A stretch of DNA of 14,939 nt, from sequence record PX306536.1. One strand, 5' to 3'. Under the pieces are notes generated by a model, which saw only the letters and a list, made by a program, of their open reading frames with translations, did not search any database and was not told where the DNA came from. A program made the translations under genes and the position numbers. Below are positions 5,288 to 14,699 of this stretch, in pieces. The stretch's first letter is position 1; each line of letters opens with the position of its first letter. This stretch comes from a phage.

Positions 5288-6309
5288 TGGCTAATCAACA
5301 AATTGGCGGTAGCACGGTAACTTATAACGGCGCTATCCCTATGGGTGGCCCGGTGGCAATTAATACCGTTATTGAAATTGCAGGCACGGAAGTTTTAGTT
5401 GATTTAAAACTTGACTATGCAACCGGCAAAATTTCGGGCGTTCAAACTCTTTATATCGACTTGCGCGATTTTTTGGGTGACGTAACCGTGACCATGCCGG
5501 ACACCGGGCAGCGCATTACGGCGCGGGCAGGTACGCAAGGTTATTACCCGGTGCTATCCACTAACCTTATGAAATTCATTGTATCCGCCACTATTGACGG
5601 AAAATTCCCAATGAATTTTATTAACTTCCCTATTGCGCTTGGCGTATGGCCTAGCGGAATTAAAGGCGATAAAGGCGACCCCGGCGCACCCGGCCCCGCT
5701 GGTGGTACGGTTGTTGTTGAAGATTCCGGCGCGTCATCTGGTGAAAGCCTGCTAGACACTACCAGCGAACCGGGCAAAATTCTGGTTAAACGAATTTCGG
5801 CGGGCAGCGGAATTACCGTTACTGATTATGGCGATGAAGTGGAAATTGAAGCCAGCGGCGGCGGTGGTGGCGGTGGCGGTGTAACTGATGCGCTTTCATT
5901 AATGTATTCGACCAGTACGGGCGGGCCTGCAAGTATTGCGGCCAATGCGCTTACTGATTTTGATTTGTCCGGGGCGCTGACTGTAAATAGCGTGGGAACT
6001 GGTTTGACAAAATCAGCCGCTGGCATTCAATTAGCGGCGGGTAAATCCGGGCTTTATCAAATTACCATGACGGTAAAAAATAATACCGTGACAGCGGGAA
6101 ATTATTTATTGCGCGTTAAATACGGTAGTAGTGAATTTGTAGCGGCCTGCCCCGCCAGTAGCCTGACCGCTGGCGGTACAATTTCACTACTGATTTATTG
6201 CAACGTGTTAGGCGTTCCAAGCCTTGACGTGCTAAAATTCAGTTTGTGTAATAGCGGGGCGGCGCTTAGTAATTACATTATTAATATCACTGCCGCGAAA
6301 ATTAATTAA
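5287..6309 (+). CDS. V: Vertex spike protein P5, 340 aa, with P31-like N-domain, collagen-like Gly-X-Y stretch and Gly8 hinge
   Basis: ATG at 5287 overlaps the XXXI stop (TAATG); the track's 5281 start is a TTG. N-domain similar to P31; GIKGDKGDPGAPGPAGG at 5656-5706; Gly8 at 5857-5880. Confidence 0.88.
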   Translation: MANQQIGGSTVTYNGAIPMGGPVAINTVIEIAGTEVLVDLKLDYATGKISGVQTLYIDLRDFLGDVTVTMPDTGQRITARAGTQGYYPVLSTNLMKFIVSATIDGKFPMNFINFPIALGVWPSGIKGDKGDPGAPGPAGGTVVVEDSGASSGESLLDTTSEPGKILVKRISAGSGITVTDYGDEVEIEASGGGGGGGGVTDALSLMYSTSTGGPASIAANALTDFDLSGALTVNSVGTGLTKSAAGIQLAAGKSGLYQITMTVKNNTVTAGNYLLRVKYGSSEFVAACPASSLTAGGTISLLIYCNVLGVPSLDVLKFSLCNSGAALSNYIINITAAKIN

Positions 6310-6784: not shown

Positions 6785-7284
6785 TGGATACCGAAGAAAT
6801 TAAAGAGGAAATGCAGGAAGCCGCCGAAGCCGCCATAGAAAACGCGGTTGAAACTGCCGAACTGGAAACAGCCGCTATTAAAGCGGAAGGGGCGGCGGCA
6901 GCGGCGGAACAATCGGCAGAACAAGCGGCGGTAATGGCCGCGACCCTTGCCGCAAGTGTTGAAGCAAACGCCGCGCAACAAATCGCGGAACATTCGGAAC
7001 AGGTACAAACACAAGAGGAAAAAATATCATGGCTGGAAAATCAAGTAATGGCGATGGCGTCAAATTTGCAGATGATGCAGGAAGCGGTAACAGCATTGAC
7101 GGTATCGCAATCATTGACCCCGGAACCGTCACCAGCGCCAGCGGTGGAAGTGGAAGCGATGCCGGAAGCGGTGACAGTGGAAATACTCCCCGAAAGCGCG
7201 GGCGACCAGCCGGAAGCGGAACCGGCGCAAAGCGTGGGCGACCAGCCGGAAACAGCGCCGCGAAAAAGGTTCCGGGCAATCTAG
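6784..7284 (+). CDS. VI: Minor capsid / DNA packaging protein P6, 166 aa, acidic and Ala/Glu-rich
   Basis: 166-aa ORF, start overlaps the XXXIII stop (TAATG); strongly acidic low-complexity N-terminal half. Confidence 0.8.
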   Translation: MDTEEIKEEMQEAAEAAIENAVETAELETAAIKAEGAAAAAEQSAEQAAVMAATLAASVEANAAQQIAEHSEQVQTQEEKISWLENQVMAMASNLQMMQEAVTALTVSQSLTPEPSPAPAVEVEAMPEAVTVEILPESAGDQPEAEPAQSVGDQPETAPRKRFRAI

Positions 7285-11201: not shown

Positions 11202-11825
11202 ATGGAAAAGGTAAAAGCATGGCTCATTAAATATAAGTGGTGGATTGTGGCGGCTATTGGTGGCCTTGCCGCATTTCTGCTACTTAAAAACCGTGGCGGT
11301 GGTGGCGGCGGCGGCGGTGAATATATGGTAGGAAGCGGGCCGGTTTATCAGCAGGCCGGAAGCGGCGCGGTGGATAACACTATGGCGCTTGCTGCCCTGC
11401 AAGCCAATACGCAACTATCCGCACAGAATGCACAATTGCAGGCGCAAATGGACGCCAGCCGTTTGCAGCTTGAAACCCAATTGAACATTGAAACGCTTGC
11501 CGCTGATAACGCGCATTACAGCACGCAAAGCCAATTGCAGCTTGGCATGGCGCAAGTGGATTTGTCTAAATACCTTGGCGACCTGCAAAGCACCACTAGC
11601 ACGGCGCTTGCTGGTATGCAATCCGATACCGCCAAGTATCAAAGCAATATCCAATTGCAGGCCGAAAATATCCGCGCTAATACTTCACTTGCTGAAATTG
11701 ACGCGCAAAAATACATTGTCGGCAAACAAGCCGATATTGCCAAGTATCAAGCGAAAACAGAACGGCGCGGGCAGGACTACGGTTTTGCTTTGGGCTTGCT
11801 GAATTTCGGCGGCAAATTCTTTTAA
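11202..11825 (+). CDS. XI: DNA-delivery protein P11, 207 aa, with N-terminal membrane anchor, Gly8 linker and Gln-rich domain
   Basis: 207-aa ORF; Gly8 at 11295-11318; Q/A-rich repetitive body; size matches PRD1 P11. Confidence 0.85.
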   Translation: MEKVKAWLIKYKWWIVAAIGGLAAFLLLKNRGGGGGGGGEYMVGSGPVYQQAGSGAVDNTMALAALQANTQLSAQNAQLQAQMDASRLQLETQLNIETLAADNAHYSTQSQLQLGMAQVDLSKYLGDLQSTTSTALAGMQSDTAKYQSNIQLQAENIRANTSLAEIDAQKYIVGKQADIAKYQAKTERRGQDYGFALGLLNFGGKFF

Positions 11826-12189: not shown

Positions 12190-12999
12190 ATGGCTGGTGC
12201 GCTGCAATGGTGGGAAACTATCGGCGCGGCTTCGGCGCAATATAACCTTGACCCGCGCCTAGTGGCCGGGGTTGTCCAAACGGAATCATCCGGCAACCCC
12301 CGCGCCATTTCAGGCGCGGGCGCTATGGGTTTAATGCAGCTTATGCCAGCGACCGCCAAAAGTTTAGGCGTAACAAACGCCTATGACCCTACACAAAACA
12401 TTTATGGTGGCGCGGCCCTTTTGCGTGAAAACCTTGATAGATACGGCGATGTTAATACGGCGTTGCTTGCTTATCACGGCGGAACTAATCAAGCAAATTG
12501 GGGCGCTAAAACAAAATCTTATCCGGGTAAGGTTATGGAAAATATCAATTTGCTTTTCGGTAATAGCGGCCCGGTAGTAACGCCAGCGGCAGGAATTGCG
12601 CCAGTATCCGGGGCGCAAGAAATGACCGCCGTTAATATCAGCGACTATACCGCGCCTGATTTAACGGGGCTTACTATGGGGGCGGGTAGTCCTGAATTTA
12701 CAGGCGGGGCTAGTGGTTCATGGGGCGAAGAAACGCCAGAAGAAAACGTGCCGTGGTATCGCGTAGATAAGCACGTTGCGAACGCGGCGGGTTCCGCTTA
12801 TGACGCGGTGGCAGGGGCAGTAAGCGCACCAGTGGAAGCGGCAGGAAACTACGCCTTGCGGGGCGTGGTAATTATTGCGGCGGTGGCAATTGTTGTTGTT
12901 GGTTTGTACTTCCTTTTTCAAGATGAAATTAACAGCGCCGCCATGAAGATGATTCCAGCCGGTAAGGCGGCAGGGGCAGCGGCTAAGGCAATGTCATGA
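12190..12999 (+). CDS. VII: Virion lytic transglycosylase P7 (SLT domain) with C-terminal membrane anchor, 269 aa; C-terminal portion may also be made as P14
   Basis: SLT catalytic signature VVQTESSGNPRAISGAGAMGLMQLMPATA; C-terminal transmembrane helix VVIIAAVAIVVVGLYFLF. Confidence 0.9.
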   Translation: MAGALQWWETIGAASAQYNLDPRLVAGVVQTESSGNPRAISGAGAMGLMQLMPATAKSLGVTNAYDPTQNIYGGAALLRENLDRYGDVNTALLAYHGGTNQANWGAKTKSYPGKVMENINLLFGNSGPVVTPAAGIAPVSGAQEMTAVNISDYTAPDLTGLTMGAGSPEFTGGASGSWGEETPEENVPWYRVDKHVANAAGSAYDAVAGAVSAPVEAAGNYALRGVVIIAAVAIVVVGLYFLFQDEINSAAMKMIPAGKAAGAAAKAMS

Positions 13000-13349: not shown

Positions 13350-13704
13350 ATGGGTTTTGTCTAACCTGAAAAGCGTGGCCGCTATTGCGGTTGCGCTTTT
13401 AATGCTTGCTAACTTTGGTTATTCAATTTTAGCGGCTAAAAAAATAACGGGGCTTCAAAATGAAATTAAAGCCATTGAAGAAAAGGCGACCGCAAACGCC
13501 AAAGCGGTGGAAGCCCTTCAATCAGTACGCGCAAGCGATGCGAAAGCAATCGCGGCAATTCAGGAAGGCCAGACAATTATCAGCGGCAAACTTAGCCGAA
13601 CAATTAGCGGATTGGGAAGGGTAAGCGATGAAACTAAACAAATTCTTGATAGTCCTATGCCTGCCGATGTTCGCGGCTTGTTCAACAACAGCCCCGAAAA
13701 TTGA
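13318..13704 (+). CDS. XXXVI: Rz-like inner-membrane spanin P36 (alternative start ATG 13342)
   Basis: N-terminal transmembrane helix followed by a coiled-coil-like periplasmic domain; overlaps the holin 3' end. Confidence 0.7.
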
Positions 13705-13900
13705 AACCGTTTATCTGGTTCCGCCGCCAAGCCTGCTAACTGAATGCGCCGCGCCTGTTTATCCGTTTATAACGTGGCGGGATTTGGTGGAAGCATACGC
13801 AAAAGAAAAGGCCGCAAGGGAATCATGCGGCCTTCAAATTCAAGAAATAAAAAACTGGTTTAAAGAAACAGTTCCAAGCGAAAGCCGAAAGTTTCAGTAA
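13628..13900 (+). CDS. XXXVII: Rz1-like outer-membrane lipoprotein spanin P37, 90 aa, overlapping the XXXVI 3' end in another frame
   Basis: Signal peptide with lipobox-like FAAC then Pro-rich VPPPS; own RBS GGGAAGGG (13612-13619). Confidence 0.7.
13801..13834 (-). terminator. Intrinsic terminator for the leftward early transcript, embedded in the XXXVII coding sequence
   Basis: 9-bp GC-rich stem AAGGCCGCA/TGCGGCCTT (13808-13816 and 13826-13834) with a 9-nt loop, followed on the minus strand by UUCUUUUG; lies 26 nt beyond the gene XIX stop. Confidence 0.55.
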
Positions 13901-14144
13901 TCAGCTTGCCAAGCCATTCAGCTTGCGTAACGCCAGCGGGCGTAAAACCGTTATCGGCAAACCGCAAATCAAAATGTTCGCTTACCACGCGGATAGCGCC
14001 CTTGACTTGATAAACAGCGGCAAGCGCGGTGCTGCCATACATAAGCGATGAAGCAAAAGGCGTTTGTCCAAAGTCGCCGGGAATGGACACAAAATAAAAT
14101 GCCTTCGGGCATTCAGGGCGGTTATTTTCGGTTTGCTTTTCCAT
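13860..14144 (-). CDS. XIX: ssDNA-binding protein P19, 94 aa
   Basis: Minus-strand ORF with RBS AAAGGTAAC upstream; second gene of the right early operon; 3' end overlaps XXXVII convergently. Confidence 0.75.
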
Positions 14145-14177
14145 GTTTGTTACCTTTGAATTTGAAGGGTAAAGAAT

Positions 14178-14204
14178 GGCCCCGCGCTGGTATCAGCCGG
14201 GGCC
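14178..14204 (-). other. GC-rich stem-loop in the XII-XIX intergenic region (possible attenuator or RNA stability element)
   Basis: GGCCCCG...CGGGGCC with extra inner pairing, roughly 11 bp with one bulge and a 4-nt loop; followed on the minus strand by AUUCUUUA. Confidence 0.4.
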
Positions 14205-14216
14205 GTGGCGCGTTGA

Positions 14217-14699
14217 TTAGGCTTCGGCCTTGGCCTTGGCCTTGGCGGCGGGCTTGGCTTCGCCAGCGGCTTCACCGGCAGCGGCAGGGGCAGGCAGCGC
14301 GGCCTTAACCTGATTGCGAAGCGCGGCCAGTTCATCCGATGCGGCGGGTTCAATCAGCGGCTTGACACCGTATTCATAACCAGTGTTGCCCTTTTCGGAA
14401 GGCTTGGCCCAAATTTCAACCGCAAAATCAACCGTGTTTTCACCATCCACGGCACCGGCAAGCAGGCTTTCCAGTACCTTCGGCAGAATCAGCGCACCGG
14501 AACGGAACACTTCACCAGTGGCGATATTCACGCCTTCAAATTCACCTTCAAACTTGATGAAGTCGCCAAAGGTGGATTGACCAACTTTCTTACCGCGAAC
14601 GCGGCCATAGATGGAAGCCAGCGCGGTATTTTCCTTGATGCTGTGCGGCTTCGGTTGTGCGCCAATGGTTTTCAGAGTCAGCTTGCTTACGATTTCCAT
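14217..14699 (-). CDS. XII: ssDNA-binding protein P12, 160 aa, with Ala/Lys-rich C-terminal tail
   Basis: 160-aa minus-strand ORF, first gene inside the right ITR; RBS AAAGGTAAC; tail AAKAKAKAEA encoded by a GGCCTT x3 repeat. Confidence 0.88.
   Translation of the reverse strand: MEIVSKLTLKTIGAQPKPHSIKENTALASIYGRVRGKKVGQSTFGDFIKFEGEFEGVNIATGEVFRSGALILPKVLESLLAGAVDGENTVDFAVEIWAKPSEKGNTGYEYGVKPLIEPAASDELAALRNQVKAALPAPAAAGEAAGEAKPAAKAKAKAEA

Follow-up and report, generated by a model that had tools for sequence, protein, structure and literature searches.

The stretch of DNA analysed here (hereafter the window; 14,939 nt) aligns end to end with alphatectivirus genomes and is therefore taken to be a complete PRD1-like linear genome. 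None of the aligned genomes is identical to it: the window shares 97.9% identity with Burkholderia phage vB_Bco-CSP1 and 97.5% with PRD1, and is collinear with PRD1, PR5 and others at 97-98%. At the right end of the genome a leftward early operon carries gene XII followed by gene XIX, with coordinates as in PR5, where XII is annotated. The features of the locus are as follows.

13860-14144, minus strand: gene XIX, encoding the second ssDNA-binding protein P19; downstream of XII in the same operon and given for context only.
14180-14206, minus strand: G+C-rich hairpin in the XII-XIX spacer (7 bp, bulge, 4 bp, tetraloop), separate from the repeat.
14217-14699, minus strand: gene XII, encoding the ssDNA-binding protein P12 (160 aa); first gene of the right-end early operon.
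14298-14333, minus strand: C-terminal alpha-helix of P12, residues 123-134 (from the translation and PMC11886824).
14220-14297, minus strand: C-terminal tail of P12 (residues 135-160), intrinsically disordered according to PMC11886824 and with a high content of Ala, Pro, Glu and Lys.
14220-14255, minus strand: 'basic tip' of P12, K149-A160 (KPAAKAKAKAEA), exactly the segment absent from P12(1-148).
14226-14246, minus strand: perfect hexanucleotide tract encoding A152-K-A-K-A-K-A158 of P12; (GGCCTT)x3.5 on the plus strand.
14244-14246, 14241-14243, 14238-14240 and 14235-14237, minus strand: P12 codons A152, K153, A154 and K155.
14232-14234, 14229-14231 and 14226-14228, minus strand: P12 codons A156, K157 and A158.
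14223-14225, 14220-14222 and 14217-14219, minus strand: P12 codons E159 and A160 and the stop codon.

The open reading frame had been named P12 in the initial annotation, and its 99% identity to PDB 9gfq/9i86 bears this out. A phmmer search against PDB chains matched the protein to 9gfq_A with residues 1-160 aligned to 1-160 (E = 7.9e-98), and the gene is annotated XII in more than 70 relatives. Clustering at 90% identity groups the protein with P12 of PRD1, PR772 and L17, and exactly the same protein is also encoded on a 14,794-nt Logan contig. The characterised P12 (PMC11886824) is likewise 160 aa long, occupies the same operon position and has an identical KPAAKAKAKAEA tip; the window protein differs from it at two positions, with I21 for V21 and G143 for A143. 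Residues K10 and F44, which contact ssDNA, and E123, R128 and Q130 of the cooperativity helix (roles as given in PMC11886824) are all present in the translation. As judged from its sequence, the window protein is a PRD1-type P12 on every feature tested, and from the 99% identity to the characterised protein we infer that it probably binds ssDNA cooperatively and independently of sequence.

P12-ssDNA filaments have been studied by cryo-EM, and the core of the protein by crystallography (Trager et al., NAR 2025, PMC11886824). In these filaments helix 123-134 docks on the neighbouring protomer and mediates cooperativity, and the cryo-EM map does not resolve residues 135-160, which are disordered; the disorder that we assign to the tail of the window protein is taken from this published structure. 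The tail strengthens cooperative ssDNA binding, and its C-terminal end was named the 'basic tip' (PMC11886824). Binding of ssDNA by P12(1-140) is markedly weaker than by the full-length protein, and binding by P12(1-122) is undetectable. The toxicity of P12 to E. coli drops stepwise through the 1-148, 1-140 and 1-122 truncations; P12(1-148) was assayed for toxicity alone, and the mechanism of the tail was unclear to the authors. According to the same paper, every PRD1-related phage conserves the tip; it mentions neither variation in unit number nor the PRDsky allele that lacks the tip (PMC11886824). In the window the tail reads LPAPAAAGEAAGEAKPAAKAKAKAEA, and its last 12 residues have a net charge of +3.

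Three GGCCTT units encoding KAKAKA at the C-terminus of P12 had been noted at 14226-14243, in the tail of an ssDNA-binding protein. Both the sequence at these positions (GGCCTTGGCCTTGGCCTT) and the minus-strand open reading frame 14217-14699 agree with this description, and the tract does lie within the disordered residues 135-160 (PMC11886824). The trinucleotide GGC extends the same register to 14246, so that the coding strand reads GCC-AAG three times followed by GCC, and the protein ends in ...GEAAGEAKPAAKAKAKAEA before the stop codon. Tandem Repeats Finder (TRF) reported the tract at 14226-14246 with period 6, 3.5 copies, 100% matches and a score of 42. No other perfect period-6 tandem in the window is as long; among 2000 dinucleotide-preserving shuffles of the window, none contained such a tandem of 21 nt and two contained one of 18 nt. 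The GGCC core is self-complementary, and the hairpins that the tract can form as DNA are weak (-4.1 kcal/mol). The tract is thus real and goes beyond a chance match, with the codon bias of P12 as the caveat. The window P12 uses GCC for 18 of its 28 alanines and AAG for 14 of its 16 lysines, compared with 25% and 38% genome-wide, and arithmetic on these codon counts gives a perfect DNA repeat a probability of ~7-11% by codon bias alone, once the KAKAKA peptide is given. Because of this, and because the peptide is found elsewhere in other codons, we rejected the perfect repeat as proof of a recent duplication. TRF also listed other short tandem repeats in the window, none of them perfect, at 6883-6931, 11293-11319, 12856-12895 and 5857-5881; their units are a 12-nt GCGGAAGCGGCG (x2-2.7), a 9-nt GTGGCGGTG (x3), an 18-nt unit (x2.2) and GGCGGT (x4.2).

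The hairpin in the spacer starts 11 nt beyond the stop codon of XII, with AUUCUUU after it; the RNA fold of 14140-14225 has an energy of -25.8 kcal/mol (z = -2.2). It is kept in relatives, with a changed upper stem in forest and in the divergent clade and an extra G in PRDsage and PRDmint. A simple terminator scan left it unflagged, and within the early operon it may act as an attenuator or affect mRNA stability. At the tract itself, a terminator and promoter scan flagged nothing. Further along, the convergent 3' ends of ORFv/P37 (spanin; 13628-13900, plus strand) and XIX (P19; 13860-14144, minus strand) overlap by ~40 nt. Quinones-Olvera et al. described this overlap region as especially high in nucleotide diversity, and the highest nucleotide diversity in our alignment is that of the P19 part (0.071).

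With a 301-nt query spanning the tract, 76 matching phage records were found in GenBank, 75 of which the analysis covered. The DNA was read for 27 GenBank records, three IMG/VR contigs, one JGI contig and one MAG contig, and most of these directly read sequences have three units. A further ~40 core records were classed by alignment span, and we infer three units for them since they align gaplessly over the full 301 nt with no net change in length. Scans with P12 found three loci in IMG/VR, one in JGI metagenomes and one in GTDB genomes, and so contributed hardly any new alleles; the JGI contig and one of the IMG/VR contigs (L001), both 14388 nt long with an identical tail, are probably one and the same.

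The number of units differs in four of ~66 core records; the other ~62 (~94%) are without length change. PRDmahogany has exactly one extra GCCAAG (+6 nt; 4 units, AKAKAKAKA), PRDsage lacks exactly one (-6 nt; 2 units, AKAKA), and PRDnavy lacks one (-6 nt) and has a G>A change in addition (2 units, AKTKA). In PRDsky (L027, PP412861.1 13600-14649) 24 nt, corresponding to window 14235-14258, are deleted between GCCAAG direct repeats. Its P12 has 152 aa and ends in ...PAPAAAGEVDGEAEAEA (GEVDGEAEAEA); the deletion together with AAG>GAG leaves no lysine in the tail and makes the tip acidic. The initial annotation had suggested that the tract could expand or contract by slippage and that repeat number should be compared with related genomes. 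The comparison gave alleles of 0, 2, 3 and 4 units, so that the number is not invariant, and three of the variants differ by the exact 6-nt steps expected of slippage, a pattern which suggests that slippage does occur here. The four variants are known from assembled genomes, in which assembly errors are possible, and neither isolate paper (Nat Commun 2024, Microb Ecol 2024) mentions indels in P12. As assembled, PRDsky is a counter-example to the published universal conservation of the tip in PRD1-related phages. Since this phage forms plaques with no lysine in the tail, the tip would not be essential for propagation on the isolation host.

Other relatives have substitutions that break the repeat and keep the K-x-K-x-K spacing. 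These are GGT (KGKAKA) in forest, peacock, cherry, indigo, amber and one IMG/VR contig, GTC (KVKAKA) in mint and a synonymous GCG in PR4; the divergent PRD clade has KGKGKATAE (AAG GGT) with the same spacing. In a neighbour-joining tree of the P12 body and downstream sequence, mahogany, sage, navy, sky and turquoise fall into one tight local clade that includes the window. Divergence from the window is at most 1.6% for the tract variants and turquoise in this clade, except for sky (2.4%). The P12 gene of Pseudomonas phage vB_PputP_LNA9 (L018, OM630588.1) has a 1-nt deletion in a CCC run of the tail, and the resulting frameshift gives a 170-aa product; the record carries an UNVERIFIED flag and is given as circular, for which reason we attribute the deletion to a probable error in sequencing or assembly and do not count it as an allele.

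Other length changes lie near the tract. Across 24 core sequences, aligned from the XII start codon to 355 nt beyond the stop, gene XII shows 11 indel events; they are confined to sense nt 380-465 (codons 127-155, window 14235-14320), with none at nt 1-379 (codons 1-126). The probability of such clustering under uniform placement is ~6e-9. This hotspot covers the end of the helix and the disordered tail, and its indels range from -33 to +21 nt, all of them multiples of 3 nt. Tail deletions are bounded by direct repeats of 4-15 nt: skutterchuck and hazel have a 15-nt deletion with GCCGCTG/GCCGCTG flanks, and turquoise has a 33-nt deletion adjacent to the tract with CCGC/CCGC flanks. Tandem duplications of 21 nt are found in carrot and navy. 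Nucleotide diversity is 0.048 in the P12 tail and 0.026 in the P12 body. The GC-rich, low-complexity tail has several sites prone to slippage, and the hexamer tract, whose own repeat number is evidently under purifying selection, is one of them.

To what extent it is the DNA or the peptide that is conserved can be judged from more distant proteins. A search with the P12 protein gave 39 homologue clusters with identities down to 37%. In 35 of these the net charge over the last 12 residues is positive, and the remaining 4/39 have no basic end. One homologue with 62% identity and an otherwise unrelated tail (P0013; L033 223-714, on a 14493-nt Logan SRR26937443 contig) ends in AKGKAKAKAEA, that is, with the KAKAKAEA end of the window and no DNA repeat, its codons being GCA AAA GGA AAA GCA AAA GCG AAA GCG GAA GCA. 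Another, with 51% identity (P0031), ends in SKAKAK and is encoded by AAG GCG AAG GCG AAG. A 14932-nt, alphatectivirus-sized contig (L032, CANRNG010000038.1) encodes a P12 with 86% identity, whose tail is a different one (...TKKVKATVDPVDETQSA) and ends in acidic residues; it belongs to a MAG labelled 'uncultured Erysipelothrix sp.', and the binning is probably wrong. The occurrence of the same KAKAKAEA in other codons at 62% identity, together with a positive C-terminus in 35/39 clusters, points to selection of the peptide. We conclude that selection probably acts on a (Lys-small residue)3 peptide, and that the perfect hexamer repeat would be largely a by-product of the GCC/AAG codon bias of P12, with slippage as a side effect. 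On these comparisons the tract appears to be a constrained functional motif that slips occasionally, and not a hypervariable locus.

We consider it highly probable that the tract encodes the (Lys-Ala)3 core of a selected basic tip, with the repeat arising from codon bias and its rare unit changes from slippage. Lysines at positions i, i+2 and i+4 of a flexible chain would make electrostatic contacts with the ssDNA backbone or, alternatively, with acidic residues of the neighbouring protomer or tail, and such contacts of the tip may raise local concentration and cooperativity. Selection would maintain the peptide, and the preference for GCC and AAG would write it as a perfect 21-nt hexamer repeat, in which slipped-strand mispairing during replication could occasionally add or remove one 6-nt unit. 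Each of these changes would be in frame, would add or remove one Lys-Ala and would be rare and tolerated in viable isolates. Because the unit is 6 nt long, there is no on/off switching by frameshift. Slippage between direct repeats may also be the source of the other in-frame indels in the low-complexity tail.

It is unlikely, in our judgement, that the tip, through natural variation in its charge and length, works as a rheostat that sets filament cooperativity and toxicity to the host, with the EAEAEA end of PRDsky as a functional alternative resembling the acidic tips of other SSBs. If it did, the variation would come from slippage, both at the GCCAAG tract and at direct repeats nearby, and the charge-reversed tip of PRDsky would be functional and not the mark of a crippled allele. 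We think it quite unlikely that the tract serves as an adaptive tuning knob, by which slippage varies tip length and charge and selection adjusts the cooperativity and toxicity of P12 for each host or condition. Such a role would fit the finding of mahogany (4 units), sage (2), navy (2), sky (0) and the turquoise deletion in one closely related local clade, the loss of toxicity and binding on progressive truncation of the tail (PMC11886824) and the in-frame nature of all indels. However, 3.5 units are far below known hypermutable tracts, three units are fixed in ~94% of core genomes, and the variants share their isolation host strain with their three-unit relatives; the clustering in one clade may reflect shared sampling only.

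Very unlikely, too, is the proposal that the Lys-Ala stretch is neutral low-complexity filler, a slippage product with no specific role in a dispensable and unconstrained tail. PRDsky is viable without the stretch, deletions of up to 33 nt and 21-nt duplications are tolerated in the tail, and the tail exceeds the P12 body in nucleotide diversity, all of which would be expected of filler. Yet an identical KAKAKAEA end is encoded by other codons at 62% identity, the divergent clade keeps K-x-K-x-K with Gly replacing Ala, and the C-terminus is net positive in nearly all clusters (35/39). In addition, no indel disturbs the reading frame, so that the tip is preserved, and the published truncation series ties the length of the tail to toxicity (PMC11886824). 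A signal at the nucleic-acid level (a terminator, an RNA structure or a protein-binding site) in place of a coding feature is extremely improbable, and we rejected a structural role of the tract in DNA or RNA: the self-complementary GGCC, the weak tract hairpins and the strong hairpin 11 nt beyond the XII stop codon and 20 nt from the tract would favour one, but this hairpin is a separate element outside the open reading frame, GCG, GGT, GTC and ACC substitutions in relatives disrupt the repeat and retain the lysine spacing, and the distant homologue has the same peptide from wholly different DNA.

The selected basic tip that we favour can be set beside several known systems. As in P12, the tails of E. 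coli SSB, T7 gp2.5 and T4 gp32 are flexible C-terminal extensions that modulate cooperativity, DNA affinity and partner binding (PMC11886824). The tips of these three proteins are acidic, whereas that of P12 is basic (+3 over the last 12 residues), a contrast also drawn in PMC11886824. The EAEAEA end of PRDsky is acidic like those tips, but came about by deletion plus AAG>GAG. The coding microsatellites and contingency loci of bacteria and phages share with the P12 tract an intragenic, perfect short tandem repeat with natural alleles that differ by whole units; the P12 tract differs from contingency loci in its 6-nt unit, its 3.5 units only and its variation in ~6% of core genomes. The tract is not a contingency locus, given its in-frame changes, its shortness and the rarity of its variants. 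Bacterial DNA-binding proteins such as AlgP, with its KPAA repeats, and mycobacterial HupB, at its C-terminus, have Lys/Ala/Pro-rich, histone H1-like tails of many tandem units that bind dsDNA. Their composition (KPAA, AKAKA) is similar to that of the P12 tip, and by analogy a disordered basic segment may make electrostatic contact with DNA in both cases. P12 differs from them in having a single tip of 12 residues on a protein that forms filaments by binding ssDNA.

P12, its tail and the basic tip are already known and structurally characterised, and what is added here is minor: the polymorphism in unit number, the indel hotspot in the tail and the counter-example of PRDsky. These points matter little for basic biology; they could be of use for work on the mechanism of P12 and on PRD1-based orthogonal replication systems. 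In such systems the toxicity of P12 is a practical obstacle and tail truncations are in use; the 1-140 truncation makes PRD1 replication plasmids clonable (PRIME preprint, 2026). The alleles with 0, 2, 3 and 4 units, the indel-prone tail, the recoded KAKAKAEA end and PRDsky amount to a ready-made allelic series for the function of the basic tip, and the PRDsky allele corrects the published claim of universal tip conservation among PRD1-related phages.
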